Source of the DNA: an uncultured Actinomycetes bacterium
GTDB lineage: Bacteria > Actinomycetota > UBA4738 > HRBIN12
DNA length: 64,000 nucleotides
Assembly (NCBI GenBank): GCA_963704885.1
Contig: CAVPIB010000004.1
Coordinates: forward strand, 384,001 to 448,000
Reading direction: 5' to 3'
The notes under the pieces were generated by a model that worked only from the letters and a program-made list of their open reading frames with translations, had not been told where the DNA came from and searched no databases. Positions 1,572 through 46,584 of the stretch are shown here, piece by piece (the stretch's first letter is position 1; each line of letters opens with the position of its first letter). The translations under genes and the position numbers were made by a program.

Positions 1572-3665
1572 GTGTTGAAGACCTACGACGCGAAGGACAT
1601 CCGCAACGTCTTGCTGGTAGGCCACGGCGGCTCCGGGAAGACCACGCTCCTGGAGGCCATGCTCTTCACCTCAGGTGCGATCACCCGCATGGGCACCGTC
1701 GAGGATGGCAACACCGTCTCGGATCACGATCCCGACGAACAGCGCAAGGGCATCTCCGTCTCGCTCTCCATGGCCCCGGTCGAATGGGAGGGAGTGAAGA
1801 TCAACGTCCTCGACGCGCCGGGCTACGCCGACTTCATCGGCGATCTGCGCTCGGCGGTCCGCGCCGTGGACGCGGTCATAGTCGTCGTCTCGGCGGTGGA
1901 TGGGGTCGAGGTCCAGACCGAGGCGGCGTGGGAGCTCGCCGTCGAAGCGGGCCTGCCCCGCGCCATCTTCGTCAACAAGCTCGACCGCGAGCGCTCTTCC
2001 TTCCAGGGCACCCTGGATCAGCTCGTCTCGTCCTTCGGTAACCAGGTGGCGCCGCTCGAGCTCCCGATCGGCGCCGAGCACGAGTTCTCGGGCGTCGCCG
2101 ACCTCCTGCACGAGAAGGCGGATCTGTACCCGAGCGGTCCTATCGCGCAGGAGGGTGAGTGGCCCGATGAGATCCACGCCATCGCCGACCCCGCCCGCGA
2201 GAAGCTCATGGAAGCCGTGGCCGAGGGTGACGACGACCTGATCGAGAAGTACCTGGAAGACGGCGCGCTCGAGGAGCACGAGATCGTGACCGGCGTCAAG
2301 ACCGGGTTCGCGAACGCGCGGATCGCGCCGGTGATCTGCGGCTCGGCCGCTAAGGCGATAGGGGTCGACCGACTGCTGGCGTTCATAACGGAGGAGTTCC
2401 CCTCCCCGCTCGACCGCGCACCCGTCGAGGTGAGCGGGAAGACCGGCGACCCCAAGGAGCGCGCGAGCGATCCCGGTGGACCCACGACGGCGTTCGTCTT
2501 CAAGACGGTCTCAGACCCGTTCGTGGGACACATCACCATGTTCCGGGTCTTCTGCGGCAAGGTCCGTCCCGACTCCTCAGTGTTCAACGCGACCCAGAAC
2601 ACGGAGGAACGGGTTGGACAGCTGTTCGCCCTGCGCGGCAAGGAACACGAGAGCGTATCCGAGGTGGCCGCCGGCGACATCGGGGCGGTAGCCAAGCTCA
2701 CGCACACCCACACGGGCGACACGCTGTCCACCAAGGACGACCCCGTTCAGCTTCCCGCGATCGATCTGCCCGAGCCCTTGCTGGCCTACGCAGTGGAGCC
2801 CAAGACCAAGGGCGACGAGGACAAGCTCTCCACGGGCCTCGCGCGCCTGCGCGAGGAGGACCCCACGCTGCGCGTGGCCCGCTCGGACGAGACGCACGAG
2901 ACCGTGATGTATGGCATGGGCGAGGCGCACCTCGACGTGCAGATCGCGCGGCTCAAGCGGAAGTTCGGCGTGGAGGTGGCCACGCATCCCGCGAAGATCG
3001 CCTACCGCGAGACGATCAAGAAGAAGGCCAAAGGGCTGGGTCGACACGTGAAGCAGACCGGCGGCCACGGCCAGTACGCGGTGTGCAACATCGAGCTGGA
3101 ACCGGTGCCCCGCGGTGACGGATTCATCTACGAGAACAAGATCTTCGGTGGTGCGATCCCCTCGCAGTTCATCCCGTCGATCGAGAAGGGCATCGTGAAG
3201 ACAATGTCCGACGGCGTGATCAGCGGCAACCCCATGGTCGACATCAAGGTCACGCTAGTCGATGGCAAGTTCCACCCCGTCGACTCCTCGGACATGGCGT
3301 TCCAGATCGCGGGCTCGCTCGCTCTCAAGGATGCCGTCGAGGCCGCGGGCGTCGTGCTGCTGGAGCCCGTGGTCGACCTGGATGTCATCGTGCCCGACAC
3401 ATACACCGGCGACATCATGGGTGACCTCAACACCAAGCGCGGCAAGATCGGCGGCATGGAGCAGATCGGCGGAGGGAAGCAGCGGATCCATGCCCAGGTG
3501 CCGCAGGCCGAAGTGGCCCGGTACGTGATCGACCTCCGTTCCATGACCGGCGGCAGGGGCGCGTTCTCCATGGCCTTCTCTCACTACGAAGAGCTCCCGA
3601 GCCATCTGACACAGAAGGTCATCGCGGCGTATCAGACGGCCCGCGAGGAGGCACACAAGAAGTAG
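1572..3665 (+). CDS. fusA2: Elongation factor G-like protein (EF-G2/FusA2)
   Basis: GHGGSGKT, DAPG, NKLD, GMGEAHL, KQTGGHGQY and LRSMTGGRG motifs; AAGGAG Shine-Dalgarno. Confidence 0.93.
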   Translation: MLKTYDAKDIRNVLLVGHGGSGKTTLLEAMLFTSGAITRMGTVEDGNTVSDHDPDEQRKGISVSLSMAPVEWEGVKINVLDAPGYADFIGDLRSAVRAVDAVIVVVSAVDGVEVQTEAAWELAVEAGLPRAIFVNKLDRERSSFQGTLDQLVSSFGNQVAPLELPIGAEHEFSGVADLLHEKADLYPSGPIAQEGEWPDEIHAIADPAREKLMEAVAEGDDDLIEKYLEDGALEEHEIVTGVKTGFANARIAPVICGSAAKAIGVDRLLAFITEEFPSPLDRAPVEVSGKTGDPKERASDPGGPTTAFVFKTVSDPFVGHITMFRVFCGKVRPDSSVFNATQNTEERVGQLFALRGKEHESVSEVAAGDIGAVAKLTHTHTGDTLSTKDDPVQLPAIDLPEPLLAYAVEPKTKGDEDKLSTGLARLREEDPTLRVARSDETHETVMYGMGEAHLDVQIARLKRKFGVEVATHPAKIAYRETIKKKAKGLGRHVKQTGGHGQYAVCNIELEPVPRGDGFIYENKIFGGAIPSQFIPSIEKGIVKTMSDGVISGNPMVDIKVTLVDGKFHPVDSSDMAFQIAGSLALKDAVEAAGVVLLEPVVDLDVIVPDTYTGDIMGDLNTKRGKIGGMEQIGGGKQRIHAQVPQAEVARYVIDLRSMTGGRGAFSMAFSHYEELPSHLTQKVIAAYQTAREEAHKK

Positions 3666-3673
3666 CGGGTCTC

Positions 3674-3698
3674 AGGTTACTAGTCTGCCTCAGACTAC
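3674..3698. repeat. 25-bp semi-palindromic element, copy 1 (AGGTTAC-TAGTCTG-cct-CAGACTA-C)
   Basis: 23/25 identical to 40191-40215; lies at the fusA2/hydrolase convergent junction. Confidence 0.85.
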
Positions 3699-4508
3699 CT
3701 CCGCCAGGAACCCGAGCAGGAGCCGGTCGAACTCCTGTGGGACGCGTAGGTTGACGACGTGATCCGCCCCGGGAACGGTCACCTTCCGAGCACCGAGGAT
3801 GCCCAGGGCGATCAGCTCACTGACCCGGCGCGCGTACGGCGGATCATGCTCGGGTAACAGCACCAGGGTGGGGACGTCGATCTCGGAGAGCCTGTGCGCG
3901 GCCGGCGGATCCAGCTCCTCGTGCGCGGCCTCGTCCATGGTCATCTCGTGCAGGTTGTCGAAGGCGATGCTGCGGATCCGGCTCCCGGGCTCATCCTGCG
4001 TGCCGAGCGGCGCCCATATCCGCAGACGTAGTTCCTCCGCCGCCACCAGATCGCCGGCATCGATCGCGGCGTCGATGGGCGCCGAAACCTCCTCCCACCA
4101 GTCGTCCTCCTCCTGGAGCGCCTCGAACCCACCCAACGCCGAGGCCACCGGCACCAACGCGCTGACGCGATCCGGGTGCTCCAGCGTGAAGTCGATCGCG
4201 ACCCCGCCGCCCATGGAGCAACCGACCAGCACCGTCTGCTCTGATCCTGCGGCATCCAGGACTGAGACGAGGTCCCGGACGTTCGAGTAGGGCTCTCCGG
4301 TGAGGCGGCTGGATCGCCCGTAACCACGCAGGTCGTACCTGATGACCCTGTAACCCGCGTCGGCCAGGACGGGGACCTGTGGGTTCCAGGTCCTGGAGTC
4401 CCAGAGTCCCGGATGGATGAGTGTCACGTCCCGGCCGGCACCCGTCACCTCGTAGTAGAGGCGACCGCCGGGAACCTCGAGGAACGACGACCCTTCGGGC
4501 TCGCTCAC
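3690..4508 (-). CDS. Alpha/beta fold hydrolase
   Basis: HPG, DLRGYGRS, GCSMGG nucleophile elbow and C-terminal ADH. Confidence 0.9.
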   Translation of the reverse strand: MSEPEGSSFLEVPGGRLYYEVTGAGRDVTLIHPGLWDSRTWNPQVPVLADAGYRVIRYDLRGYGRSSRLTGEPYSNVRDLVSVLDAAGSEQTVLVGCSMGGGVAIDFTLEHPDRVSALVPVASALGGFEALQEEDDWWEEVSAPIDAAIDAGDLVAAEELRLRIWAPLGTQDEPGSRIRSIAFDNLHEMTMDEAAHEELDPPAAHRLSEIDVPTLVLLPEHDPPYARRVSELIALGILGARKVTVPGADHVVNLRVPQEFDRLLLGFLAEVV

Positions 4509-4993
4509 GGATCGAACCTGGGTTTCAGCCGCGCGAACGTCTCGGCCAACAGCTGCGGTAGCACGCGCGTCTCCCCCACGACCGGCATGAAGTTCGAGTC
4601 GCCCCCCCAGCGCGGCACGATGTGCCAGTGGAGGTGGTCGGGGATACCGGCCCCGGCGACTCTGCCGAGGTTAACCCCGACGTTGAAGCCGTGAGGATCG
4701 GATTCGGCACGCAGCGCTCGGACCGATCGCTGCATGAGATCCGCGATCTCCGCGTTCTCGCCGGCGGTAAGGGCGTCCAGCTCGCCGACGTGCCGGAGCG
4801 GCAGCACCAGCAGGTGGCCGGGGTTGTACGGGTACTTCGCCAAGGTCACGAACGCGAGCTCGCTCTGCGCGAGGATCCGCTCCTCGACCGGCCCCACGCC
4901 GGCCACGATCGCGCAGAAGACGCAGCCACCGTCCTCGGCTTCCTTGGCGGACTCGATGTACTGCATCCGCCAGGGACTCCAGAGGTGCTCCAC
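4505..4993 (-). CDS. HIT family hydrolase (Ap4A phosphorylase-like)
   Basis: LWSPWR, CVFC, YPYNPGH and HLHWH; adjacent to thrS. Confidence 0.92.
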   Translation of the reverse strand: MEHLWSPWRMQYIESAKEAEDGGCVFCAIVAGVGPVEERILAQSELAFVTLAKYPYNPGHLLVLPLRHVGELDALTAGENAEIADLMQRSVRALRAESDPHGFNVGVNLGRVAGAGIPDHLHWHIVPRWGGDSNFMPVVGETRVLPQLLAETFARLKPRFDP

Positions 4994-5000: not shown

Positions 5001-6935
5001 TCAGCCCCCGAAGCGTGTCTGCTCGATAGCCCGCGACCCAACCTCTTGCACGAGCGCAGCCACCACGTCGTCGAACGCGAGCCCCGGGGTCTCGGTCCCC
5101 TCTCGATCGCGAACGGTGAAGGATCCGGCTTCGATGTCCCGGTCGCCCACCACGAGCGTGTACGGCGCCTTCATGAGCTGGGCGGCCCGGATCTTCTTGC
5201 CTACGGTCTCCTTCGAGTCGTCGACGAACGGGCGGAGGCCCGCCGCCCGAGCCTTTCCCGCGAGCTCCTCGCAGTGACCGACATGTCGGTCGGCCACAGG
5301 GACGAATCGGATGTGCTCGGGCGAGAGCCAGAGCGGGAACGCGCCAGCATAGTGCTCGATCAGCACCGCGCTGAATCGTTCCAACGTCCCCAGGATCGCT
5401 CTGTGCACCATCACCGGCCGGTGCCGCTTGTTGTCCTCGGCGGAGTACTCCATGTCGAATCGCTCGGGCAGCGCGAAGTCACACTGCACGGTCGTGAGCT
5501 GCCAGAGCCTCCCGATCGCATCCTTGAAGTGGAAGTCCACCTTCGGGCCATAGAACGCGCCCTCGCCCTCGGCCACCTCGTAGGCGAGCCCGCTCTTATC
5601 GAGCGCCTGCCGCAGCGCCTCCGTGGCGCGCTCCCACATCTCCGGCTCGCCGATAGCGAGCCCCGGCTTGGTGGACAGGTTCACTATCGGCTCGGAGAAC
5701 CCGAACGTGCGATGGATCTCGAGCGTCAGGTCGAAGACCGCGAGGATCTCATCCACCAACTGCTCCGGCGTGCAGATGATGTGTGAGTCGTCCTGGGTGC
5801 CGCCGCGGATCCGGAGCAACCCGTGGAGCGCACCCAGACGCTCGTATCGGTAGATGGTTCCGAGCTCGGAGATGCGCATCGGCAGGTCGCGATAAGAACG
5901 CACCTGCGACTTGTAGATCAGCACGTGAAACGGGCAGTTCATGGGCTTGACGAAGTACTCGTTGCCCTCGCCGTCGTCCATGACCGGATACATGTTGTCG
6001 ATGTACTTCGCGGTGTGACCGCTTGTATCCCACAGGTTCCGGCGTGCGAGGTGAGGGCTCACCACCAGGTCATAGCCGCGCTCCAAGTGCAGCTCGCGGA
6101 CGTAGTCCTCCAGCTCTTTACGGAAGATCCCGCCGCGGGCATGCCAGAGCCAGAGACCGGGACCCAGCTCGTCGGGCGAAGAGAACAGGTCGAGCTGTCG
6201 CCCAAGCTTGCGATGGTCCCGCCGCTCGGCCTCCTCCAGCCGCACCAGATAGGCGTCCAGGTCCGCCTGTTCGGCCCACGCCGTGCCGTAGATCCGAGTG
6301 AGCATGGGCCGCGACTCGTCGCCGCGCCAATAGGCCCCCGCCACGCTGGTCAGCTTGAACGCGCCCAGCCTTCCGGTGGAAGGAACATGCGGTCCGAGGC
6401 ACAGGTCGGCCCACCCGTCGTTCTGATACAGGGTGACGGAGTCACCCGAGCCAACTTCGCCCTCCTCGGCGCTCAGCCCCTCGACGATCTCGATCTTGAA
6501 CGGCTGATCCGTGAGGCGCTTCAGAGCCTCGGCCCGTGGGACCTCCTCGCGAACGAAGGGCTGATCCGACGCGACGATCTCACGCATCCGTTCCTCGATC
6601 GCCGGAAGGTCGTCGGATGACAGCGGCTGGGGCAGCTCGAAGTCGTAGTAGAAGCCGTCGTCGATCGCCGGGCCGATCGCGTACTTCGCGTCCGGGTACA
6701 GAGCACACACCGCCTGGGCCATGACGTGGGCCGTGGAGTGGCGCAGCACGTGCAGGCCATCTGCGTCCGTAAAGTTCACCGGGATGACGTCCGCATCTGC
6801 GTCCGGAACGAACGACAGATCGCGGAGCTCTCCATCCACCACGGCCGCGATGGCCTCGGCCGACAACCCGGACCCAACCGGCTCCCCCTCGGGAAGCTCG
6901 ATGTGCGATGCGTCGGGCAGGGTCAGGCGTGGCAT
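5001..6935 (-). CDS. thrS: Threonine--tRNA ligase
   Basis: HSTAH, DLCLGPH, DHRKLG, KPMNCP, GAFYGPK and HRAILG. Start set at 6935 because TATCAT (-10) lies 7 nt upstream (leaderless). Confidence 0.97.
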   Translation of the reverse strand: MPRLTLPDASHIELPEGEPVGSGLSAEAIAAVVDGELRDLSFVPDADADVIPVNFTDADGLHVLRHSTAHVMAQAVCALYPDAKYAIGPAIDDGFYYDFELPQPLSSDDLPAIEERMREIVASDQPFVREEVPRAEALKRLTDQPFKIEIVEGLSAEEGEVGSGDSVTLYQNDGWADLCLGPHVPSTGRLGAFKLTSVAGAYWRGDESRPMLTRIYGTAWAEQADLDAYLVRLEEAERRDHRKLGRQLDLFSSPDELGPGLWLWHARGGIFRKELEDYVRELHLERGYDLVVSPHLARRNLWDTSGHTAKYIDNMYPVMDDGEGNEYFVKPMNCPFHVLIYKSQVRSYRDLPMRISELGTIYRYERLGALHGLLRIRGGTQDDSHIICTPEQLVDEILAVFDLTLEIHRTFGFSEPIVNLSTKPGLAIGEPEMWERATEALRQALDKSGLAYEVAEGEGAFYGPKVDFHFKDAIGRLWQLTTVQCDFALPERFDMEYSAEDNKRHRPVMVHRAILGTLERFSAVLIEHYAGAFPLWLSPEHIRFVPVADRHVGHCEELAGKARAAGLRPFVDDSKETVGKKIRAAQLMKAPYTLVVGDRDIEAGSFTVRDREGTETPGLAFDDVVAALVQEVGSRAIEQTRFGG

Positions 6936-10279: not shown

Positions 10280-10322
10280 CGTTCCTCCACGTTCGGATCG
10301 GACTGCAGGACGCTACGAGATG

Positions 10323-10394
10323 TGGGCGCGGCAGGTTTTGAACCTGCGACCTCTCGCGTGTGAGGCGAGCGCTCTCCCGCTGAGCTACGCGCCC
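10323..10394 (-). tRNA. tRNA-Val(CAC)
   Basis: Cloverleaf GGGCGCG...; anticodon arm CTCGC-CT-CAC-AC-GCGAG; GGTTCAAA T-loop. Confidence 0.93.
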
Positions 10395-10463
10395 GTCTTC
10401 GGGATCCGTAGCCTAGCGGATTCGGATACGTCGGCTGGTGAGGGCTCGTGGTGGGGATAAGGT

Positions 10464-10496
10464 GACGGCGGCACGTGCCCGCGTCGTGCCGCCGTC
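10464..10496. other. Perfect 12-bp inverted repeat / hairpin
   Basis: GACGGCGGCACG-N9-CGTGCCGCCGTC. Confidence 0.6.
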
Positions 10497-10691
10497 GCAT
10501 CCGCGCTCCGAAGAGCGGGACGTTCCTGCAGTTCAGGCGGGAGTTTGGCACAGCTGATGAGGCATCCGCAAGGACGGGAGGTGGTCGCTTCGGGGCCGCC
10601 AGAGCGCCTTGGGGGTAACGTGTCGGTTGGATCGATGAAGCTACGCTTCGACCACACGGCCGCGAAGCGACGAGCAGGGAGGCGAGCGGAG

Positions 10692-10850
10692 ATGAAGCGC
10701 TTCCTTACGGACCTCTTCGGCAGGGTCCGTGCGAGATCGGAGACCGATCGCAAGCGCGCCCTTGAGCGAGCCGCCAGGGAGATGAGCCGCCGTGATCCTC
10801 ATGGCGGCAGCATCTGGAGATCTGGGAAGGGCGGTTCTCACCCCGGCTGA
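10692..10850 (+). CDS. Small basic hypothetical protein (52 aa)
   Basis: GGAG-rich SD before the ATG; MKRFLTDLFGRVR... An alternative start lies at 10635. Confidence 0.4.
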   Translation: MKRFLTDLFGRVRARSETDRKRALERAAREMSRRDPHGGSIWRSGKGGSHPG

Positions 10851-10995
10851 AAGGCGACGCTACCCCCCCACGCTCGACGCGGGGCATGCTGCAAGCAGGT
10901 GCTGAACCGGAGCTGATGTCGACAACGGAGGTCTCAGGACTTTCGACCGGGGAAGATGACGACCTCTGTCACCCCGAAACGGCCGACAGGTCCCT

Positions 10996-11023
10996 TTGAT
11001 TCACATGCATTCTTCTCTAAGTT
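10996..11023 (+). promoter_or_regulatory. Putative housekeeping-sigma promoter of a leaderless small ORF
   Basis: TTGATT-N16-TAAGTT, 8 nt before ATG 11032, within a locally AT-rich patch. Confidence 0.45.
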
Positions 11024-11031
11024 GACACCCA

Positions 11032-11241
11032 ATGGACTCCTCCTCGAAGCGCGATCCCGGACGTCGATGCTCAGCCCCAGGCTGCACCACCGTCCTATCG
11101 ATCTACAACTCCGATCATCTGTGCTTCGCACACGCTGACGCCGCGACTCGTGCTCGATTCGAACCCAGGAGGTCGGTCGGGAGCACTCCCGCCATCTATC
11201 GACAGCGGACCGACTCATCGACCTACGCGGCGGTGTCCTAG
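11032..11241 (+). CDS. Small putative zinc-binding protein (Cx4C...Cx2H)
   Basis: RRCSAPGCTTVLSIYNSDHLCFAH; promoter-like elements directly upstream. Confidence 0.65.
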   Translation: MDSSSKRDPGRRCSAPGCTTVLSIYNSDHLCFAHADAATRARFEPRRSVGSTPAIYRQRTDSSTYAAVS

Positions 11242-11503
11242 GGATCTCTCGTGCCATTGCAGGAAGACCCGCACGACGAACACGCAAGGGAGACGAGGGA
11301 AAAGGGCGAGATGCCCGGGATCTTCGTGGACCCGCTATCGATCTCGCTCGTCGAGAACCGTGCGGCAGCGGGTGAGCAAGCGTTCAAGGAGATGTTGGAG
11401 CGCCAAGGCGGCCCCGGCAGGGCAAGCGTCGCCGAGAGTGGTTGGAGCAACACATGGACGCGTTGCGCGCCGCGTTCGCGTGAGCAACGCGCGCGGTCTT
11501 GGT

Positions 11504-11578
11504 TGGTGGGCGCTAGAGGATTTGAACCTCTGACCTCTTCCGTGTCAGGGAAGCGCTCTCCCCCTGAGCTAAGCGCCC
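11504..11578 (-). tRNA. tRNA-Val(GAC)
   Basis: Anticodon arm CTTCC-CT-GAC-AC-GGAAG; GGTTCAAATCC; encoded CCA. Confidence 0.95.
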
Positions 11579-11615
11579 GTGCGGGGACTGTACCAAGGGA
11601 CCTATCGGCCTCTCG

Positions 11616-11686
11616 AGGCGGGGACCGGAATCGAACCGGTGTGCGGGGCTTTGCAGGCCCCTGCCTAACCACTCGGCCACCCCGCC
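11616..11686 (-). tRNA. tRNA-Cys(GCA)
   Basis: GGGGC-CT-GCA-AA-GCCCC anticodon arm; GGTTCGATTCC; U discriminator. Confidence 0.95.
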
Positions 11687-11722
11687 GAACCGGCCCAGTC
11701 TACGGGACCATCCCGGAACGAC

Positions 11723-11749
11723 CGAACGGCCGCCGGAGGCGGCCGTTCG
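11723..11749. other. 12-bp hairpin in the tRNA-Gly/tRNA-Cys spacer
   Basis: CGAACGGCCGCC-gga-GGCGGCCGTTCG, directly 3' of tRNA-Gly. Confidence 0.6.
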
Positions 11750-11750
11750 A

Positions 11751-11826
<76 letters not shown>

Positions 11827-18224: not shown

Positions 18225-19541
18225 TCACGACCTGACGAACTCCCGGACCGCCGCGAACCCCTGCTCATCGACGAGCGCCCTTACGATCGTTCCCTCTCCG
18301 TCGGTCTCGGTCCCGAGCACCTCCGCTTCACGATAGAGGCGCGCGGTGACGTCTTCGCGCCCCCAAGGCACGAGCAACGTGACCTCGAGCGGCGGATGCG
18401 GGACGGCCTCCTCCACGACGACCAGCAGCTCCTCGGCTCCCTCACCCGTGAGTGCTGAGACCGCGACCGATCCCGGGAAGCGTCGGGCCAGGCGCGCTCG
18501 TTCCGAGCCTGCGACCTGGTCGATCTTGTTGAGGGCCAGCACCTGTGGGATTTCGGCCGCGCCGATCTCGTCGAGCACCCGGTGGACCGCCTCGATCTGC
18601 GAGTCGATGGCCGCGGAGGACGCGTCGGCGACGTGAAGGATGACGTCGCCCAGTGCGACCTCCTCGAGCGTCGAGCGGAACGCCTCGACCAGGTCGTGTG
18701 GCAGTTTGTTCACGAACCCGACCGTGTCGGAGAGCGTGGCGGCGCGGCCACTCGGAAGCTCCAGGCGCCGCACGGTAGGATCGAGGGTGGCGAAGAGCTG
18801 GTCCGCTACCACCACCCGAGCGCCGGTCAGGAGGTTCAGCAACGTCGACTTGCCGGCGTTCGTGTAGCCGGCGATCGCGATCTGCGGCACGTTCCTTCCA
18901 CGCCGGCGCGCGCCCTTGACGTCGCGGGTCCGGGTCATGTCCTTGATGTCGCGACGGAGCTTCGTCATCCGTCGGCGGATGTGCTGGCGGTCGACCTCCA
19001 TCTTCGTCTCACCGGGACCCCGGGTGCCGATGCCACCGCCCAGCCTCGACATAGCCTCGCCCCAGCCACGCAGTCGTGGCAGGAGGTAGTTGAGCTGGGC
19101 GAGCTCCACCTGGACCCGCCCCTCTCGCGACCGGGCGTGCAGCGCGAAGATGTCTAGGATCAAAGCGGTCCGGTCGATGACCTTCACGCCCAAGCGCTCC
19201 TCCAGCGTGCGCAGCTGCCCGGGAGAGAGCTCCTGATCCAAGATCACCGCGTCCGCCCCCGCGGAGTGGACGGTGTCGTGGAGCTCTTTCAGCTTGCCCT
19301 TCCCCACGTACGTGCTGGGATCGGGCTCCGCGCGGTTCTGAACCACACGGGCGATCGGATCCGCTCCCGCCGAATCTGCCAGGGCGGCCAGCTCGTCCAG
19401 ATCCTCCTCCGCGATCCCCTTCCCGACTCCGACAAGGACGGCCCTTTCTCGAACCGCGGGCCGCCATGTGGCAGAAAGCGGCGACTCCAGCACGCGCTTG
19501 CGAGACGTTGACGGACGCGTCGGCGAGCCCTCTGGAGCCAT
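18225..19541 (-). CDS. hflX: GTPase HflX
   Basis: GIGTRGPGETK, GYTNAGKS, FATLD, DTVGF and NKID. Confidence 0.95.
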   Translation of the reverse strand: MAPEGSPTRPSTSRKRVLESPLSATWRPAVRERAVLVGVGKGIAEEDLDELAALADSAGADPIARVVQNRAEPDPSTYVGKGKLKELHDTVHSAGADAVILDQELSPGQLRTLEERLGVKVIDRTALILDIFALHARSREGRVQVELAQLNYLLPRLRGWGEAMSRLGGGIGTRGPGETKMEVDRQHIRRRMTKLRRDIKDMTRTRDVKGARRRGRNVPQIAIAGYTNAGKSTLLNLLTGARVVVADQLFATLDPTVRRLELPSGRAATLSDTVGFVNKLPHDLVEAFRSTLEEVALGDVILHVADASSAAIDSQIEAVHRVLDEIGAAEIPQVLALNKIDQVAGSERARLARRFPGSVAVSALTGEGAEELLVVVEEAVPHPPLEVTLLVPWGREDVTARLYREAEVLGTETDGEGTIVRALVDEQGFAAVREFVRS

Positions 19542-20374
19542 CACGACGCCCCGTCGGTGGGCAAGCCGAACTCCCTGAGCATGGCGTTCAACTGCACCTT
19601 GGCCTCGGTGCGGTCGTCTCGGTACCCGATGATCAGCCCGCACGGTAACCCGTAAGGCCCGGCGGGGAACTCGCGGGTGCGAGACCCCGGGACCACTACT
19701 GCTCGCGCCGGCACGCTCCCCCGCATCTCCACGGGTTCGGCTCCTGTCACATCGATGACCGGAACGCTCCCCGTGAGCACGACCCCCGGAGCGATCACGG
19801 CCTCGCGGCCGATCCGCACCCCTTCCACCAGCACGACCCGAGACCCGATGAAAGCGCCGTCCTCCACGATGACGGGCGCCGCCTGCAGCGGCTCCAGGAC
19901 GCCGCCGATGCCGACGCCTCCCGAGAGATGGACGTTCGCGCCTATCTGTGCGCACGACCCCACGGTGGCCCACGTATCGACCATGGTCCCGGGTCCCACC
20001 CAGGCTCCGATGTTCACGTAACTGGGCATCAGGATCACGCCCGGGGAAAGGAACGCCCCGCGGCGGGCCACAGCGGGCGGGACCACGCGGACGCCCGCCT
20101 CCTCGTAACCCGTCTTCAACGGCAGGCGGTCGTGATACTCGAACGGACCACACTCGAGCGTCTCGAGTCCGCGGACGCGGAAGTAGAGGAGCACGGCCTT
20201 CTTCACCCAGCCGTTGACCACCCACCCGGTGTCGGTCGGGTCCGCCACGCGGATGTGGCCTCGGTCGAGGAGGCCGATCGCCTCCTCGACGGCCCCGCCA
20301 TCCAACGCAGCGTCCGGGGCATCGAAGCTCGCCTCGATCCTGGCGGCAAGATCCGGGTATCGCTCGTCGCTCAC
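19541..20374 (-). CDS. dapD: Tetrahydrodipicolinate N-succinyltransferase
   Basis: WVKKAVLLYF, MPSYVNIGA, TWATVGSCAQIG and GGVLEPLQA. Confidence 0.93.
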   Translation of the reverse strand: MSDERYPDLAARIEASFDAPDAALDGGAVEEAIGLLDRGHIRVADPTDTGWVVNGWVKKAVLLYFRVRGLETLECGPFEYHDRLPLKTGYEEAGVRVVPPAVARRGAFLSPGVILMPSYVNIGAWVGPGTMVDTWATVGSCAQIGANVHLSGGVGIGGVLEPLQAAPVIVEDGAFIGSRVVLVEGVRIGREAVIAPGVVLTGSVPVIDVTGAEPVEMRGSVPARAVVVPGSRTREFPAGPYGLPCGLIIGYRDDRTEAKVQLNAMLREFGLPTDGAS

Positions 20375-21543
20375 GAGGTCACCGCCGGATCGGGAAGGAG
20401 GTCGAGGAGGATATCGGCGGCACGCCGGCATTCGTCAATCGTGGGCACCATGGCCATGCGAACGTAGCCCTCGCCCTCTGATCCGAAGTACGACCCAGGC
20501 GCGACCACGATCCCGTTCTCGAGCAGCTCTGAGCCCCAATCGGCGGATGGCCGCCCCGCGGGGACCTTCACCCAGAGGTAGAACGTCGCGACCGTCCCAG
20601 CCACCTGGATACCCTTCGTCCTGAACAGCTCCAGGAACAGGGCTCTCCTCTCCGCGTATCGGCCGCGCTGTTCCTCGACGTGGCGCTCGTCACTCCAGGC
20701 GGCCACCGAGGCGAGCTGGATGAACTCCTGGGGCGTCACGCCGACGGATGGGCGCTGCGCCTTCATGGCGGCGATCAGCTGGCGGTCCCCCGCCACGAAG
20801 CCCGAACGGTAGCCAGTCATCGACGACCGCTTGCTCAAGGTATTGATCGCGACCACGTTGGCGAGATCCCCGACCTGCAGGACTGATGGCGGCGGCCCCG
20901 ACTCGAACCACAGCTCGCTGTAGGCCTCGTCCGAAACCAGCAGGAACCCGTGCCGGCGGGCGAGCTCCGCGGCTCGCTCCAGGAACGGGAGCGTCGCGAC
21001 CGCACCCGTCGGATTGTTCGGGTAGTTGAGCCAAAGGATCGCGGTTCGATCCCACGTGGAATCGTCGACCCCTTCCAGGTCCGGCAGGAAGTCGTTCGCC
21101 TCCTCGAGCGGCAGGCGCATCACGTCGGCGCCCGTGGCTCTTGCTCCGCGCTCCGGGATGGCGTAGCCGGGCGCGGTTACGACCACGAGGTCGCGGCCGG
21201 CGGCGGGATCGACCACGGCCTGCGCCAGCGAGTAGATCGGCTCCTTGCTCCCCATGGTCGGGAGCAGCTCCGTCGCGGGATCCATGTTCACCCCGAACCG
21301 ACCTCGAACCCACCCGGTTATCGCCTCACGTAGCTCGGGGAGTCCCGCCGCCCGCGGGTAGGACGACACGGGTGTGATCGCATCCTTCAGCGCGTCGCGG
21401 ATGAACCCAGGCGTCTCGTCGCGAGGATCGCCCACACCGAAGTCGATCAGTTCGCGCCCGGCGTCGAGCGCCGCCCGCTTCCGTCGATCGAGCTCTTCGA
21501 ACGGGTACGGCTCAACGTCGCGGATCGACGGTGCCAGATGCAT
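20371..21543 (-). CDS. dapC: Succinyldiaminopimelate aminotransferase (class I/II PLP)
   Basis: NYPNNPTG, SDEAYSE and LSKRSSMTGYRSG; lies in the dap cluster. Confidence 0.85.
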   Translation of the reverse strand: MHLAPSIRDVEPYPFEELDRRKRAALDAGRELIDFGVGDPRDETPGFIRDALKDAITPVSSYPRAAGLPELREAITGWVRGRFGVNMDPATELLPTMGSKEPIYSLAQAVVDPAAGRDLVVVTAPGYAIPERGARATGADVMRLPLEEANDFLPDLEGVDDSTWDRTAILWLNYPNNPTGAVATLPFLERAAELARRHGFLLVSDEAYSELWFESGPPPSVLQVGDLANVVAINTLSKRSSMTGYRSGFVAGDRQLIAAMKAQRPSVGVTPQEFIQLASVAAWSDERHVEEQRGRYAERRALFLELFRTKGIQVAGTVATFYLWVKVPAGRPSADWGSELLENGIVVAPGSYFGSEGEGYVRMAMVPTIDECRRAADILLDLLPDPAVTS

Positions 21544-25828: not shown

Positions 25829-27361
25829 TCACTTGGCGTACTCCACCGCTCGGGTCTCGCGCACCACGGTGATCTTGATCTGGCCTGGGTACTGAAGCTC
25901 CTCCTCCACCTGCTTCGCGATATCCCGCGCGATCATCTGGGCCTGGACGTCGTCCACGTCCTCGGGCACCACCATCACGCGAACCTCCCGCCCCGCCTGC
26001 ATGGCGAACGTCTTCTCCACGCCTGGCTGCGCCGTGCAGATCTCCTCCAGCCGCTCGAGGCGCTTCACGTAGGTCTCGAGCGACTCGCGGCGTGCGCCCG
26101 GACGCCCGCCGCTGATGGAGTCGGCGATCTGCGCCAGGACGGCATCGACCGAATGCTGCTCAACCTCACCATGATGAGACTCGATGCAGTGGACGACCTC
26201 TGGGCTTTCCTTCATCCGGCGCGCGATCTCGGCGCCGATGATGGCGTGAGATCCCTCGATCTCGTGCGTGACCGCCTTCCCGACATCGTGCAGGAACGCC
26301 CCCCGCTTGGCGATGGTCCCATCCACACCGATCTCGGCCGCCAAGGAAGCCGCGATGTGCGCGGACTCCACCAGATGCTTCAACACGTTCTGCCCATACG
26401 AGGTCCGGTATTGGAGACGTCCGAGCAGCTTGATCATCTCGGGGTGGATGTCCGTGATCCCAACCTCCGCGACGGCGTCCTCACCGGCGCGGTGGATCCG
26501 CTCCTCCAACTCGCGCAGCGATCGCTCGTGCACCTCCTCGATCCGGGCCGGGTGGATCCTGCCGTCGGCCACGAGCTTCTCCAAGCTCATCCGCGCCGCC
26601 TCTCGACGCACCGGGTCGAAGCACGACAGCACCACGGCCTCGGGCGTGTCGTCCACGATCAGGTTCACTCCCGTGGTCGCCTCGAACGCCCGGATGTTCC
26701 GGCCCTCCCGGCCGATGATGCGGCCTTTCATATCGTCGCTTGGCAACGCGAAGACCGAGACGGTCGATTCCGCCGTCTGCTCGGAGGCGACGCGCTGGAT
26801 CGCGATCGTCACGATCTTGCGGGCCCGCTCCTCGCCGTCCTCGCGCGCCCGCTGTTCGATCTCGCGCACCTGGCTCATAGCCGCCCGCTTCGCCTCCTCC
26901 AGGACCTGGGCCATCAGGTGATCTCGAGCCTCGCTCGAGGTCATACTGGCTATGCGCTCGAGCTGGGCTCTGTGTTGCTCGGCCGACTTCTCCAACTGTT
27001 CTCTGACGTACTGCAGCTTCTCGTCACGCTCGCTCAGCTCCGCCGCCTTCGCCTCCACCCCGCTCGCCTGCTTGCGGAGATCGGCCTCGAACTCCGCCAT
27101 CCGGCGCTCCAGACGCGTGACCTCTTCGCGCCGCGCGCGGACGTCTTCCTCGGTCTCCCGGCGGATCGTCGCGGCTTCTTCGCGGGCCTGCTGGATCGCC
27201 TCGACCCGAGTTGCATCGGCCTCGCGTTCGGCTTGCAGCATCGACTTCTGGGCACGCGCCTCGACGCTCTGAGCGTTCGAGGTGGCCATCGCCTTGCGGA
27301 TCAGGAACCCCACGGCGATCCCCGCCACCAGGGCGACGACGCCGACCACAACTGGCTCCAT
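25829..27361 (-). CDS. rny: Ribonuclease Y
   Basis: N-terminal TM, coiled coil, KH ([13 protein letters not shown]) and HD (LHDVGK); GGAGG SD. Confidence 0.96.
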
Positions 27362-27380
27362 CGTTCCTCCCAACACACGT

Positions 27381-32025: not shown

Positions 32026-32256
32026 GGGTCTTCGGGGATGATAGTTGACCCGCGCTCGGTAGAGCCGCAAGTCACACCGGCCGTGGATCTACGCCCCCGA
32101 GGCCCCGAGGAGGACGAACCGATCGTCGGGGTCATGAACGTAGCGACGGTCAGCGGCGCAGGACCTAGGACCAAGAAACGTCCTGCTATCGCCTTCCGTC
32201 CGCTGCACGCCGCCGCAACGGTGACTACTGTCCCCAGCGGGAGGGACACGGGGACG

Positions 32257-32652
32257 ATGGATCGCGACGCTGAACGTACGAAGAACCAGGCTGAGAGCTC
32301 GCCGTTGGGGTCGTTCTCCGAACGGGTCCAGACGCCCGACCTTCTCTCGGAGGGGCCCGTCCGGTTCCTGCTCGTCGCGGGGGATCAGGACGACGGCGCC
32401 TGGGGACTGGTGGGGTCGTTCTGGCTCTCGATAGATGGCGAGCGGGGTGGATTCTTCGTCTCACCCCAGTCGCTTTGGCGCGGGAGCGAGATGGTGCGCA
32501 GCTACAAGAGCGCCCGCTCCCGAGGGTGGAACGACAGCGACATCTACGCTTATTGGCAGGGTCAGGTTGGCATCTCGGGGTCGTTCATGATCGACCCGCA
32601 GCAGCACGCCGACAACCTGTTCCAGGTCGCGCGGCGCGTGGGGGCACTCTAG
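32257..32652 (+). CDS. Hypothetical protein, paralog 1 of a tandem pair
   Basis: 131 aa; clearly homologous to 32758-33147; G-rich SD. Confidence 0.8.
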   Translation: MDRDAERTKNQAESSPLGSFSERVQTPDLLSEGPVRFLLVAGDQDDGAWGLVGSFWLSIDGERGGFFVSPQSLWRGSEMVRSYKSARSRGWNDSDIYAYWQGQVGISGSFMIDPQQHADNLFQVARRVGAL

Positions 32653-32757: not shown

Positions 32758-33147
32758 ATGACGCGCACGAAGGAACGCTCGAGCTGGAACCGGCTTTCGC
32801 CGTTCGCGGCGACGCCGACCGCCGCCCACGCCCCCCAGCTGGTGAGCGACGAACCCGTGAACTTCCTGCAGGTCGCGGGCGAGCAGGACGACGGCTCATG
32901 GGGGATCGTAGGAGCCTACTGGCTGTCTCTGAGCGGTCGAGACGGAGGTTTCTTCATCTCACCAACGGCGCTGTGGCAAGGGACCGAGATGGCGCGGAGC
33001 TATCGGGGGGCTCTCTCTCGCGGATGGACCGAAGAGCAGATCTTCTCCTATTGGAAGGATCTGGCGGGCGACGTGGGCACCTACAAGATCGCGTCGGAAG
33101 ACGCCGGCAGCCTGTTCGAGGTGGCCCGCCGGGTCGGTGCGCTCTAG
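32758..33147 (+). CDS. Hypothetical protein, paralog 2 of a tandem pair
   Basis: 129 aa; shares VAGxQDDGxWGxVG, GGFFxSP, SRGW and LFxVARRVGAL with paralog 1. Confidence 0.8.
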   Translation: MTRTKERSSWNRLSPFAATPTAAHAPQLVSDEPVNFLQVAGEQDDGSWGIVGAYWLSLSGRDGGFFISPTALWQGTEMARSYRGALSRGWTEEQIFSYWKDLAGDVGTYKIASEDAGSLFEVARRVGAL

Positions 33148-33166
33148 AGAGGTCCCGCCGCGGTGC

Positions 33167-35450
33167 TCAGGCGCTCCGGCGTTCCTCCCACTCTTCCCAC
33201 GTGATAAGCACGTCACGCGCCTTGGAGCCCTGACTCGCGCCGACGACCCCCTGATCCTCCAGAAGATCCATCAACCGTCCCGCTCGCGCGAAGCCGACCT
33301 TCAGCTTTCGCTGAAGCATCGACGTGGACCCTAGCTGCGAGCGGATCACCAGCTCGGCAGCCTGCTGCAAGAGATCGTCGTCGTCGCCCTGACCCGAGCC
33401 GCTCGCGCCCGAGGAGCTCTCGGTGGGCGGCCGGCCCAGGCCTTCGACGCTCTGCTCATAGATGGTCTCGCGCTGCCCCCGGATGAACGAAGACACGTCG
33501 TGGATCTCCTGCTCGGTCACCCAGGCGCCCTGCAGGCGCGTGGGCTTCGAGGCGTTCGCGGGGGCGTAGAGCATGTCGCCGTGTCCGACGAGTTTCTCTG
33601 CGCCGTTCATGTCCAGGACCACCCGAGAGTCGGCCTGGCTGGAGGTCATGAGGGCCACGCGTGAGGGGATGTTCGCCTTGATGAGTCCGGTCACCACGTC
33701 GACGCTCGGTCGCTGCGTGGCTAGCACGAGGTGGATGCCGACGGCGCGCGCCATCTGCGCGATGCGACAGATCGCATCCTCCACGTCGCGAGGCGCGACC
33801 ATCATCAGATCGGCAAGCTCATCGACGACGACGACGATGAACGGCATGTGCTCGTACTTGTCCTCCATGCCGAGCGGGATCCTGAGCGTCCCCTCGCGGA
33901 ACCCGGCCTCGTAGCTATCGATGTCACGAACGCCGACCGTGGCGAGGATCTCGTAGCGCATCTCCATCTCGCGGACGATCCACTGCAAGCGCTTCGGCGG
34001 CGCGCTTGGGATGCACGATCACGGGTGAGAGGAGATGCGGGACCTCGGCGAAGTGGCTGAGTTCCACGCGCTTCGGGTCCACCAGCACCATACGCACGTC
34101 ATCGGGGGTCGTCCGCATGAGGAGCGATGTGATGAAGGAGTTGACGAGAGAGGACTTGCCTGCTCCGGTCGCGCCCGCGATGAGCAGATGGGGCATCGCG
34201 GCGAGATTCACCATCTGCGTACGGCCGTGTACATCCTTGCCAAGCGCCACGGTGAGCGGATGTGTGGCCTCTTTCGCGGCCTTCGAGCGCAAGATATCTC
34301 CGAGCATCACGAAGTCGCGATGCTTGTTGGGGACCTCGACGCCGATCGCCGACTTGCCAGGGATCGGTGCGATGATCCGCACGTCCGGAGTGGCGAGCGC
34401 ATAGGCGATGTCGCTGGAGAGCTGCAAGACCTTGTTCACCTTGGTGCCGGCGGCGATGTCCACCTCGTACATCGACACCGTCGGCCCCCTGTGGGCGCCG
34501 GTCACCCGCGCATCCACGCCGAACGTGTGGAGCGTGCGCTCGAGGGCCGCCATGGTCTCCTCTTGGTGACGCCCGTCGGCTGTGGACGGCGGAGCCGTGC
34601 GCAGCAGGTCGAGCGGAGGGAGCTGATACGGGCCGCTAGGGGTGGCAACGGTCCTCGCCCTGGCGGCCCTAGCGGGCGCGGGATCGGACCGGTCCTCGCT
34701 CTCGTCTTCCAGCACCGGCGCCTCCGGCAGGACCACCAGGTCGTCCTGCGGCTCATCAAGCCCCAGCGCCTCGCGGACGCTCAGTCGCCGGCTAGGTCGT
34801 GGCGACCGCAGCTCCGAGTCGAGTCTCGCGCCGACCGGATCGCGTTCCGGCCTTGAGTCACGGAAGGTACGGACACGCTCGATCATCCGGGCAACCGGAG
34901 TGCCGGTGAAGATCAGTAGGCCAAGGGTGGTCAGGCCGGTGCAGACGATCGCCGAACCGATCGAGGAGAGCACCCGTGACATCGGGTGAGCGGCGGATGC
35001 GCCGATCACACCGGCGTCGTTCGAGAGCACGGCGTACCCGTCGAACGGGCTCGGGTTGCCACGGGCGAGGGAGAGCAGCCCCAGCGCTCCGAAGACGAGC
35101 ACCGTGAAGCCGATGAACATCCGCAGTCGATCCTCGACGGCCGTATCGCGAAGGAGCACGACGCCCCAGTACACACCGACGATCGGGAAGGCGTACGCGC
35201 CCACCCCGAAGGCACCTTGGAGGAACCACGAGATGCCGTGCCCGGCAGGCCCGGCCGCATCGAACCAAACCGAGAGGACCGCGAGCAGAGCGAACACCAC
35301 GAGTCCGATGCCCACGGCATCGCGGGTCCACGGAGACAGGATCTGCCTCGTTGGGGTCCGCGTCTTCGTCGGCTTCTTCTTCGCTCTCGGCTTCCGCGAC
35401 GACGGGGAAGACCGCCGGGCCGGAGCCCGGCGGGCCGTCTTCTGCGCCAC
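33167..35450 (-). CDS. ftsK: DNA translocase FtsK, interrupted by a 1-nt frameshift near 33987
   Basis: 4TM domain and GATGAGKS lie in frame 35450-33924; VVDELADL, ATQRPS and the gamma domain lie in frame 33988-33167. Confidence 0.9.
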
Positions 35451-39048: not shown

Positions 39049-39091
39049 GGATGCGGCATGATACGCGAACCCTGGAAGGAGACCGTGGAGC

Positions 39092-39565
39092 ATGAAGTTC
39101 CTAGAGCTGCGACGGCACGCGATCCGGGACCCCGATGTAGATCGTCTGTCGGCAACCGGCCGCGCCCAGGCGGAGGACGTGGGTCGGTCCGCCGTGGTGA
39201 CCTACGACGCCGTGTTCGTCTCCCCATCGCAGCGGACCGCGGAGACCGCCGCATGGTTCCTGCGAGGCGCTGGCCAGCAGCTGCCCGAGCACGCGGTGAT
39301 CCCAGGGCTCGCGGGTAAGGACGCGTCCGGCGGCTCCCCGGAGGGCATGGCCGCCGGTGTGCGGGCGCTGCTGGATCGCCTTTCCGATGACGAGCGCGGC
39401 CTGGCCATCAGCCACACGCCGCTCGTCGAGCGCGCGGCGTACGGGCTGACGGGTCGGGAGATCCTGCCACTCAGCGAGTGCGAAGGGATCCTGGTCACAC
39501 TGTTGGATGACGGAACCATCGACGTCATCGAGCTCCGTGCGGAAGCGGGCCTTCCGTCCACGTGA
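39092..39565 (+). CDS. Histidine phosphatase superfamily protein (SixA-like)
   Basis: RRHA, LSATGRAQA, SPSQRTAETA and ISH. Confidence 0.78.
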   Translation: MKFLELRRHAIRDPDVDRLSATGRAQAEDVGRSAVVTYDAVFVSPSQRTAETAAWFLRGAGQQLPEHAVIPGLAGKDASGGSPEGMAAGVRALLDRLSDDERGLAISHTPLVERAAYGLTGREILPLSECEGILVTLLDDGTIDVIELRAEAGLPST

Positions 39566-40200
39566 GCTGGGGTGAGCACATCGGCGCGGCGTTCGCCCTT
39601 GGGTTCGCGCTGGGCGCAGCACCCGGCCCCGTTCAGCTGCTCCTGCTCACCGAGACCGCGAAGCGTGGGCTATCGGGCGGCATAAGGGTGATGATCGGTG
39701 CGAACGGCACGCTGCTCGTGGTGATGTTGGCACTAGCGTTCGGATTCTCATCGATAGCGCCTAGCGAGGGCGTGCTACGGGGTCTCCGGCTGGTCGGAGG
39801 AGCGTTCCTGATCTACTTGGCGGCGGATGAGCTGCTGCACCTGCGTCGGGAATCCTCCGACGGCCGGACGCGTCCGCACGACGATGCTCTCGGGACGGGG
39901 CCGACCATGCGCGGCATCGTCGCCGTGGTCCTCAACCCAGGCGCGTGGATCTTCTTCGCCACGACCGCGTCCGCGGTGATCGCGGAGTCGACTGCGGACG
40001 GGGGTCGGGATGCGGCGGTGGCGGCCGCCGTCGCCATGACCGTAGGGGTGTCCCTGTCGGACTTCATGTTCACCCTTCTCGGGAGCGGGGGCAGGACCCT
40101 GTTCGGCGAACGCGGTCTCCGGTGGATCCGGGGCGGGCTCTCGCTCGGCCTGGCGGCGATCGGACTGGCCTTCGTCTGGCAGGGCGTCCGAGGTTACTAG
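39562..40200 (+). CDS. LysE family translocator
   Basis: APGPV, GGAFLIYLA and LNPGAW; about 6 TM helices. Confidence 0.88.
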   Translation: MSWGEHIGAAFALGFALGAAPGPVQLLLLTETAKRGLSGGIRVMIGANGTLLVVMLALAFGFSSIAPSEGVLRGLRLVGGAFLIYLAADELLHLRRESSDGRTRPHDDALGTGPTMRGIVAVVLNPGAWIFFATTASAVIAESTADGGRDAAVAAAVAMTVGVSLSDFMFTLLGSGGRTLFGERGLRWIRGGLSLGLAAIGLAFVWQGVRGY

Positions 40201-40215
40201 TCTGGGTCAGACTAC
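40191..40215. repeat. 25-bp semi-palindromic element, copy 2 (AGGTTAC-TAGTCTG-ggt-CAGACTA-C)
   Basis: 23/25 identical to 3674-3698; lies at the LysE/Eis convergent junction. Confidence 0.85.
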
Positions 40216-41432
40216 TAGAAGAGGAACGAACACCAAGGCGCGGGATCGGTCGTGAACAGCGCGTCGGCCAGCGCCAGCGCCCCCGGCGTTTGCTCCTGGA
40301 CGCGGCCCGCTCGATGCAGGCGCCGGAACCCAGTACCGCCCAGGTAGACGGCACCCAGATCGGTCGCGGTGCAGGCGATCTGGGTGCCCGCCCTAGTTCG
40401 CTCACACGAGGCTCCCTCGCGAGCGCTCGTGATCGCGTACCGGCCCTCGTTCCACGGACAGAACGGATCGGTGACCTCGATCACGACCGTACCGTCTCCG
40501 TTGTACCCACGTGCCGCTAAGGCCGTCGGCACGTCGACCAACCGCACGTACAGGCCGTCCTTCAGGCTGAACCGCAACCGTCGCGGCTCTTGCATCAGGT
40601 CGAGCAGCGGCTCGTCGACCGGACGGTTCCAGGCGTTCAACGAGTGCACCAGGTCGATGTCGAAGAGGTAGCGCCACATGTCCGCCCACCCCTGGGGGGT
40701 CGACCCGATCAGCTGACGTACCGTGACCTCGAGCTTGGCGATCGACTCTGGCCACTCGTGCTTCACCTTGTAGGTGGCGAAAGCGTCGACCGTTCCATCC
40801 TGCTCGTGGATCACGTACTTGACGGGATCGTCCTTGTCCTTGCCCGATTCGAAGAACAGCCACTCCCACCAGCGATCGTCCAATGCGATCATCCCGGGCC
40901 GGCGAGCCTGCTCCGCGTCGTAGACGCCGCGCATGAGCGGGAGCGCCTCGGTACGATCCAGCAGGCGCATGTTTCCCGTGCTCCGGTGGCCACGGACGAA
41001 CGCCGATCGCTCGACCTCCAGATTGACCTCGCCCATGAAGGCCGCCATCCCGTAGCCGTACCTCCCGTAGATGCCACCCTCGGATGCGAAGAGCGCGGCC
41101 AGCGGCTCGCCACGCTCGCGCACGTCGTCGAGTTGCCTCCGCATCAAGGCCGTGTTGATGCCGCGGCGTCTGTGCGTGGGCTGGACACCGACGGCGGTGA
41201 TACCGGCCGTCGCCACCTGTGCCCCTCCGGGGACCGTCATCCGGTACGAGGCAGCCGCGGCTCCACCAACGATCCTGCCGTCCTCCAACGCAGCCAACCA
41301 GCGGTCGGTCTCGGCGACGAGCCGCTCTTGTCGCAGGTCGTCGTCGGTGAGCCCTCCGCTGAACGCAGCCTCGAGGGAACGCAGAGCGGGCTCGAACTCC
41401 GCTTCGGCGATAGGCCTGATCTCGATGTCCAT
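40215..41432 (-). CDS. Eis-like GNAT acetyltransferase with SCP2-like C-terminus
   Basis: VGVQPTHRRRG, LFASEGGIYGRYGYG, DPFCPWN and LGAVYLGG. Confidence 0.88.
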   Translation of the reverse strand: MDIEIRPIAEAEFEPALRSLEAAFSGGLTDDDLRQERLVAETDRWLAALEDGRIVGGAAAASYRMTVPGGAQVATAGITAVGVQPTHRRRGINTALMRRQLDDVRERGEPLAALFASEGGIYGRYGYGMAAFMGEVNLEVERSAFVRGHRSTGNMRLLDRTEALPLMRGVYDAEQARRPGMIALDDRWWEWLFFESGKDKDDPVKYVIHEQDGTVDAFATYKVKHEWPESIAKLEVTVRQLIGSTPQGWADMWRYLFDIDLVHSLNAWNRPVDEPLLDLMQEPRRLRFSLKDGLYVRLVDVPTALAARGYNGDGTVVIEVTDPFCPWNEGRYAITSAREGASCERTRAGTQIACTATDLGAVYLGGTGFRRLHRAGRVQEQTPGALALADALFTTDPAPWCSFLF

Positions 41433-46511: not shown

Positions 46512-46584
46512 GGGCCGTTTCCTCCTCATCTTTCGGCGGACCACGATGGTCCGCGGAACGGTTCGGTTCGGGAGGCGGCGGGCT

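Follow-up and report, generated by a model that had tools for sequence, protein, structure and literature searches.

A palindromic element repeated at two convergent gene junctions of an uncultured actinobacterium: a candidate site for a dimeric DNA-binding protein

Two sequences of 25 bp, lying far apart in 64,000 nucleotides of actinobacterial DNA (this whole stretch being referred to here as the window), are nearly the same, and each lies where a gene on the forward strand meets a gene on the reverse strand tail to tail, which raises the question of what such an element may do at the ends of unrelated genes. The original prediction described the pair as identical but for two bases within a 3-nt spacer, and we find it so: the 25-mers, AGGTTACTAGTCTGCCTCAGACTAC at 3674-3698 and AGGTTACTAGTCTGGGTCAGACTAC at 40191-40215, both on the forward strand, share the pattern AGGTTACTAGTCTG-N3-CAGACTAC, which accounts for both window sites, and their surroundings are indeed convergent junctions, between an EF-G-like GTPase gene and a hydrolase gene in the first case and between a LysE-family gene and an Eis-like gene in the second. 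The two are direct repeats of one orientation, separated by 36,517 bp, with weak similarity that reaches 35 nt (83%, family D14). The tetranucleotide CTAG, singled out by that prediction as uncommon in this DNA, occurs 48 times in the window against 195 expected from base composition, a four-fold depletion.

The simplest explanation, chance similarity or an artefact of assembly or vector sequence, draws some colour from the ACTAGT (SpeI site) and the several stop codons that the element contains, as synthetic cassettes do. However, when TAGTCTG-N3-CAGACTA is searched with up to 2 mismatches, the window yields 2 matches, a number that none of 100 dinucleotide shuffles reaches, their mean being 0.04, and the 25-mer with up to 3 mismatches returns the same 2 window matches and none in any shuffle. 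The same element moreover stands in three independent MAG assemblies, where its dyad symmetry is longer; the shuffles and these assemblies refute chance or artefact for practical purposes, and we give it virtually no credence. Further or diverged copies were not found in the window with up to 3 mismatches, by a half-site scan or with a covariance model built from all five copies, and the covariance-model search with filters off over the window and the three other loci (89.6 kb) added only reverse-strand matches on the same five sites. A mini-palindrome in the 3' region of the EF-G-like gene, TCTGACACAGA at 3605-3615, repeats the inner four bases of the element arms; with a covariance-model score of 7.8 bits (E = 7.6) it is probably a chance occurrence.

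Pfam matches on the 58 ORFs of the window identify it as a segment of core actinobacterial chromosome, with genes for an acyltransferase, the EF-G-like GTPase, the alpha/beta hydrolase, a HIT protein, thrS, an ABC transporter, nrdJ, nrdR, lexA, hflX, dapF, miaA, miaB, rny, recX, recA, cinA, ftsK, rnj, dapA, dapB, pnp, ribF, truB, infB, nusA, rimP, and proS, of which thrS and all those from nrdJ through dapA lie between the two copies. GC content is 64-71% per 1-kb interval, without a compositional break, and is even between the copies. Two direct repeats of the same orientation 36,517 bp apart might be taken for attL/attR-type ends of a 36.5-kb integrated element, but the interval holds core genes and no integrase, its GC is even, and the spacers of the repeats differ; its core-gene content refutes an integrated element, a reading that we regard as having next to no chance of being right, and an island boundary, like the recombination or insertion scar suggested earlier, does not survive the same observations. 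Partner sites of site-specific recombinases share an identical central overlap, of 6-8 bp for tyrosine and 2 bp for serine enzymes; the spacer of the element has 3 nt and reads CCT in one copy and GGT in the other, and a recombinase core site was rejected.

The genome represented by the window is very compact, unusually so in its gene arrangement. Seven convergent junctions are called in the window, with gaps of 24, 9, -67, 1, 14, -25, and 532 bp, and the element is found at two of the seven. The overlaps of convergent genes, 67 bp (33127-33273) and 25 bp (52959-53063), and the other short gaps of 1-24 bp come without terminator-like hairpins. The features of the two junctions and the palindromes of the other genomes are collected in the table.

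Table. Features at the two element-bearing junctions of the window, and the corresponding palindromes at three loci in other genomes
Feature	Position	Strand	Sequence or evidence	Remarks
EF-G-like GTPase gene	1572..3665	+	Pfam; NCBIfam NF009381, 928 bits	stop 3663-3665, 8 nt before copy 1
Alpha/beta-hydrolase gene	3690..4508	-		stop TGA 3690-3692 and last codons within right arm of copy 1
Element copy 1	3674..3698	+	AGGTTAC + TAGTCTG-CCT-CAGACTA + C	covariance-model score 40.5 bits
Copy 1 palindrome core	3681..3697	.	perfect 7-3-7	holds hydrolase stop TGA and last two codons GTA GTC (V V)
LysE-family exporter gene	39562..40200	+		stop TAG 40198-40200 and last two codons within left part of copy 2
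Eis-like GNAT/SCP2 acetyltransferase gene	40215..41432	-		stop shares base 40215 with copy 2
Element copy 2	40191..40215	+	AGGTTAC + TAGTCTG-GGT-CAGACTA + C	covariance-model score 40.6 bits
Copy 2 palindrome core	40198..40214	.	perfect 7-3-7	first three bases are LysE stop TAG
L001 palindrome			GTTACTAGTCTG-GGC-CAGACTAGTGAC	
L002 palindrome			...-ACT-CAGACTAGTGTC	
L003 palindrome			...-AGG-CAGACTAGTCCT	

All four flanking genes end at the element, with 24 bp between the convergent stops at the first junction and 14 bp at the second, and neither window copy lies near the promoter of a flanking gene. The claim that the copies overlap stop codons of the unrelated genes around them stands for one gene at each site, since the hydrolase stop falls within copy 1 and the LysE stop within copy 2, whereas the EF-G stop is placed outside its copy and the Eis-like gene touches copy 2 with a single base. 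The GGT TAC ahead of the core of copy 2 encodes the last LysE residues, G-Y. Both window copies carry the same asymmetry, a right arm CAGACTAC in place of CAGACTAGT, so that each keeps one full half-site and 7 of the 12 bases of the other.

The longer form of the element emerges from other genomes. Absence of copies elsewhere had been named as grounds for discarding the element, and a scan with the exact pattern TTACTAGTCTG-N3-CAGACTA over 185,579 species-representative genomes (596 Gb) located three more exact copies (L001, L002, and L003), all of them in Actinomycetota MAGs of 69-74% GC, the carriers of the element being uncultured high-GC soil and water bacteria. At 50% GC, a base-composition model predicts about 0.03 matches per Gb, and at 70% GC about 0.001; with so low an expectation and all three matches confined to high-GC Actinomycetota, they are not due to chance. 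The scan found one exact copy on a contig of 1.82 Mb; as its pattern demanded TTAC, with variants such as GTCAC outside it, it gives no copy numbers of variant sites. In the MAGs, the palindrome is longer than that of the window, GTTACTAGTCTG-N3-CAGACTAGTG, with a dyad symmetry of 9-12 bp per arm.

The positions of these copies differ from those in the window. The L001 and L002 copies separate divergent genes, a setting without any gene 3' end, and stand immediately upstream of metG, the first gene of a metG-tatD-rpf-like-ksgA cluster; the other neighbour of the element is, in L001, a DUF222-HNH gene and, in L002, one for a cupredoxin. The MetRS proteins of the two loci are 73% identical and the DNA on either side of the element cannot be aligned, with the element itself identical except in its spacer. 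Because all three loci were found by exact match, the identity of the arms is partly there by construction; the common location ahead of metG owes nothing to the search. The L003 copy is flanked by tandem genes, a molybdopterin-oxidoreductase gene that ends 90 nt before it and a radical-SAM gene that starts 45 nt after it, so that the five copies together occupy two convergent, two divergent, and one tandem intergenic region. As to the neighbours themselves, the L001 gene at 3618-4847 on the reverse strand encodes a DUF222 + HNH endonuclease of the 13E12-repeat type of actinobacteria and starts 154 nt from the element, and the L003 gene downstream of the element (5067-6419, forward strand) encodes a CUAEP/CCAEP-tail radical-SAM (seleno)protein (NF040546, 547 bits).

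Measured from the start codons (metG twice and the radical-SAM gene once), the palindrome centres in these genomes are 38, 50, and 54 bp upstream, and the start codons are preceded at 7-10 nt by TATCAT, TAGAAT, or TAGCAT, hexamers that fit the actinobacterial -10 consensus TANNNT and that suggest leaderless transcripts. A promoter-proximal position is thus seen at all three MAG loci as against neither of the two window copies, and the placement outside promoters that had been read from the window is not a general property of the element, given its location 38-54 bp upstream of a start codon in each of the three other genomes. The arms themselves may be back-to-back -10 elements, as TAGTCT also fits TANNNT; a search for a sigma-70-type promoter consensus gave 0 matches at both window sites.

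What is conserved among the five copies bears on whether the element is recognized as a sequence or works as a structure. Nineteen columns are invariant, the spacers all differ (CCT, GGT, GGC, ACT, and AGG), and of the 12 possible stem pairs 7 are the same in every copy, 3 differ in one of their two bases, 2 show only a loss of pairing, and in none have both bases changed. With arms that stay fixed, a spacer that does not, and no covariation, the element bears the marks of sequence-specific recognition and not of a purely structural hairpin. A structural reading, a transcribed hairpin serving as a compact bidirectional terminator or as a 3'-end stabilizer common to two convergent mRNAs in a tightly packed genome, would suit the window, where both copies sit exactly at convergent 3' ends with 14-24 bp between the stops, and perhaps L003, where the element follows a stop by 90 nt between tandem genes; the MAG hairpins have stems of 9-12 bp and -11.1 to -15.6 kcal/mol, and the L001 context extends to -29.9 kcal/mol (z = -6.8 against shuffles). 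However, the window hairpins, whose stems are 7 bp long with G-C at 3 of the pairs, are worth no more than -7.0 and -7.1 kcal/mol as RNA (-4.2 as DNA), and in their 47-nt contexts they are not stabler than shuffles (z from -0.2 to -1.7). No terminator-like site was found at 3400-4000 or 39900-40500, nor a T run after the stem on either strand, and an intrinsic (Rho-independent) terminator was rejected for the window sites for want of a stable G+C-rich stem and a U-tract; the original judgement that the hairpin is too weak for a typical terminator was sound. Against the hairpin there is also the invariance of a stem with 0 compensatory changes, which a purely structural element would not need, its occurrence at only two of the seven convergent junctions called, and the divergent setting of L001 and L002: a position at the 3' end of a transcription unit applies to both window copies and possibly to L003, but not to the other two. 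We therefore consider a transcribed hairpin unlikely as the function of the element.

Whether the element persists at the window's junctions in related genomes can be approached through the proteins, as the element carries stops in several frames and a gene that runs into it gains predictable last residues. The expected tails are Y or H before the stop, from (T/C)AC TAG, and LV or VV before the stop, from (C/G)TA GTC TGA. In a set of 120 hydrolase homologues that contains the window protein itself, LV or VV is the ending of 42, and one hydrolase subgroup combines the same protein body with the terminal sequences FLTDAR, FLADARY, FLADARVV, and FLADARLV, of which the endings ARY, ARVV, and ARLV fit the frames CGT TAC TAG, GTA GTC TGA, and CGA CTA GTC TGA, respectively. 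The last LysE residue is H or Y in 11 of the 16 nearest homologues (identity of 83% or more, the window protein among them), at a position that is variable in the wider family. The EF-G C-termini, which end in a conserved KK, are uninformative on the motif. These tails suggest, indirectly, that the element persists at the hydrolase and LysE junctions in relatives; the VV/LV pattern may in part reflect conservation of the protein itself. Eleven longest-contig values are common to the match lists of the EF-G-like and hydrolase proteins (22457, 33952, 10874, 27349, 6367, 76954, 1677817, 11263, 9961, 5513, and 5923), which implies that this gene pair is kept together in relatives; a twelfth common value, 2577, is too short for both genes and was discounted. 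If the element does persist at the hydrolase junction, as the tails suggest, this speaks for a function there.

The same comparison exposes a step in identity across the first junction (1572-4508), where the EF-G-like protein is 98.9% identical to that of a relative (8 differences) and the hydrolase 74.8% identical to one on a contig of the same length, evenly along its length; in four further contig-matched pairs, EF-G identities of 95, 94, 91, and 91% go with hydrolase identities of 74, 74, 73, and 71%, and the database searched held no hydrolase homologue above 81% identity. EF-G evolves slowly, but the flat hydrolase identity suggests that the hydrolase allele of the window came from outside that clade, with a breakpoint near the element.

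Another explanation sees in the element a small palindrome that is selfish or associated with recombination, either REP-like, with a Y1 transposase acting on a single-stranded hairpin and adjacent guide tetranucleotide, or a preferred target or breakpoint for the exchange of accessory genes. REP elements with their RAYT proteins and the sub-terminal hairpins of IS200/IS605 elements are short extragenic palindromes with a conserved tetranucleotide by the stem, often at convergent 3' ends, and the element resembles them in being an extragenic palindrome with an adjacent tetranucleotide at convergent 3' ends: the hairpin has TTAC immediately on its 5' side, with GTAG on the opposite strand, words that may resemble the IS608 target and REP head sequences. 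The identical asymmetric form of the window copies, with weak similarity over 35 nt, the supply of stop codons to unrelated genes, the presence in every kind of intergenic region, the change of neighbour from L001 to L002, the sharp drop across the first junction, and the shifts in register of the hydrolase tails among close relatives would all sit well with mobility or recombination. In the DNA covered, the element appears to depart from these families in having few copies (2 in 64 kb, and the single exact one on the 1.82-Mb contig), in lacking decayed copies in the 89.6 kb searched, and in keeping the same sequence across genera at an orthologous position, upstream of metG, despite 73% MetRS identity. 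No Y1 (RAYT) transposase gave a Pfam match among the 58 window ORFs or the 21 ORFs of L001-L003, nor was any transposase or integrase gene seen among them; there is no target-site duplication, and a 3-nt spacer that differs between copies is unsuited to strand exchange by tyrosine or serine recombinases. Searches by blastn with 33-nt and 37-nt queries found no match in the plasmid collection, and the phage collection gave only a 17-nt match (E = 6), present in two records of the same Vibrio phage. A mobile or recombination-associated palindrome accordingly strikes us as improbable, on a par with the transcribed hairpin.

The explanation that we place first, and hold tentatively, is that the element is an operator-like recognition site of a putative dimeric, sequence-specific DNA-binding protein, much as the original prediction had proposed on the strength of the conserved arms and free spacer. 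What marks operators is visible here, namely an inverted repeat with conserved half-sites and a variable spacer, without compensatory change, and the low copy number and the absence of decayed copies in the DNA scanned also count for a protein site; counting against it are the shared asymmetry of the window copies, which could mean copying and not independent selection, and the spread over convergent, divergent, and tandem regions, which is typical also of small mobile palindromes. The putative binder would be a two-fold symmetric dimer from a clade of uncultured high-GC Actinomycetota, and its site in double-stranded DNA would be in full the 12-3-12 palindrome GT(T/C)ACTAGTCTG-N3-CAGACTAGT(G/A)AC, with one subunit per half-site and the 3-bp spacer not read. 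In the three MAG genomes, the genes concerned appear to be leaderless and the site is found overlapping, or a little upstream of, their -35 region; the bound protein would there control initiation. In the window, a protein bound in the convergent gaps of 14-24 bp could not act on the promoters of the four flanking genes, and we infer that the copies may there form a roadblock or boundary that holds back antisense transcription or read-through between the convergent genes; alternatively, they may be non-regulatory, functionally silent sites of a protein with few targets.

The operators of dimeric helix-turn-helix regulators (TetR, GntR, and XRE types) provide the nearest likeness, with their 17-27 bp, two-fold symmetry, invariant half-sites, unread spacer, low copy number, and, in the three MAG genomes, a position of -38 to -54 from start codons; unlike them, the element has two copies between convergent genes, overlapping stops and without a promoter of a flanking gene, and no candidate for a cognate protein was found. 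No regulator gene was found next to any of the five copies. The regulators called in the window, NrdR, LexA, and a RodZ-like HTH protein, are known to use other sites. Two unannotated ORFs near copy 2, considered as a local regulator, were dismissed as not DNA-binding, the ORF at 38599-39093 being a putative lipoprotein and that at 41462-41917 a weak match to MshB deacetylase (22.6 bits, cut-off 224 bits).

Among described sites, two share words with the element. The McbR regulon is linked to methionine metabolism, a link that would fit the metG sites, and its operator is likewise an actinobacterial palindrome of similar words (TAGxC...GxCTA). The McbR operator of Corynebacterium glutamicum is given as TAGAC-N6-GTCTA (PMC2723105, PMC9210681); compared with that form, the element, TAGTC-N7-GACTA, has the inner bases swapped and a spacing of N7 and not N6, so that the same protein contacts cannot read both, and the McbR operator was set aside. 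The C-boxes of restriction-modification controller proteins consist of GACT-N3-AGTC twice with a TGTA spacer (PMC2647307); they have the words AGTC and GACT in common with the element, and the string TAGTCTG occurs in the PvuII C-box region shown there (PMC2647307). Relative to the C-box so described, the half-sites of the element are inverted (AGTC-N7-GACT) and form a single palindrome, and no restriction-modification genes were found in the window, and so this candidate too was rejected. In the literature text covered, which included that on REP elements and Actinobacteria and had subscription journals outside its coverage, the motif was not found described, the matches to sequence strings being cloning primers and the PvuII C-box paper. 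At gathering thresholds, Rfam recognizes only four tRNAs in the window, and the element matches no family; the tRNA genes form a cluster at 10322-11826 on the reverse strand, Val-CAC, Val-GAC, Cys-GCA, and Gly-GCC.

A more specific and, in our estimate, decidedly unlikely version of protein recognition would assign the element to a dedicated bacterial boundary factor, one that binds it and halts RNA polymerase at the borders of genes where a genome is too tightly packed for hairpin terminators, the factor sitting between convergent genes in the window and just upstream of the promoters of metG and the radical-SAM gene elsewhere. Protein roadblock terminators and boundary factors are exemplified by mitochondrial mTERF, yeast Reb1, and Tus-Ter, and a protein site at gene borders, both convergent and upstream of promoters, would fit all five contexts; we know of no dedicated roadblock system against RNA polymerase in bacteria. 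If real, the factor would be a functional analogue of roadblock termination by mTERF or Reb1. More broadly, if the element is bound by a protein, it would define a regulon or a boundary system in a lineage known only from metagenomes, and were that protein to act as a roadblock where genes converge, it would reveal how transcription units are kept apart without classical terminators in very compact, high-GC genomes; a 27-bp bait would offer a handle for finding the putative binding protein, and the C-terminal tails imposed on neighbouring genes make a non-coding element traceable in relatives.

Several observations concern the genes of the window in their own right. The HflX ORF at 18225-20431 (reverse strand, 666 aa) shows HflX domains only from residue 273 and is overlapped by an ORF at 19541-20431 with gene-like GC3, and on these two grounds hflX probably starts further downstream, and there may be a second gene ahead of it. 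In ftsK (33167-35450, reverse strand), the overlapping ORFs 33924-35450 and 33167-33988 cut the FtsK_SpoIIIE domain at about profile position 110, which indicates a frameshift, real or due to assembly error. Between the RodZ-like HTH gene and ftsK lie two tandem paralogous ORFs on the forward strand (32038-32652 and 32758-33147), 49% identical over 131 aa (E = 4e-42) and without a Pfam or NCBIfam match. Finally, in this actinobacterial context, a gene for RNase Y (25829-27376, reverse strand) keeps company with those for RNase J (35451-37058) and PNPase (44190-46544).
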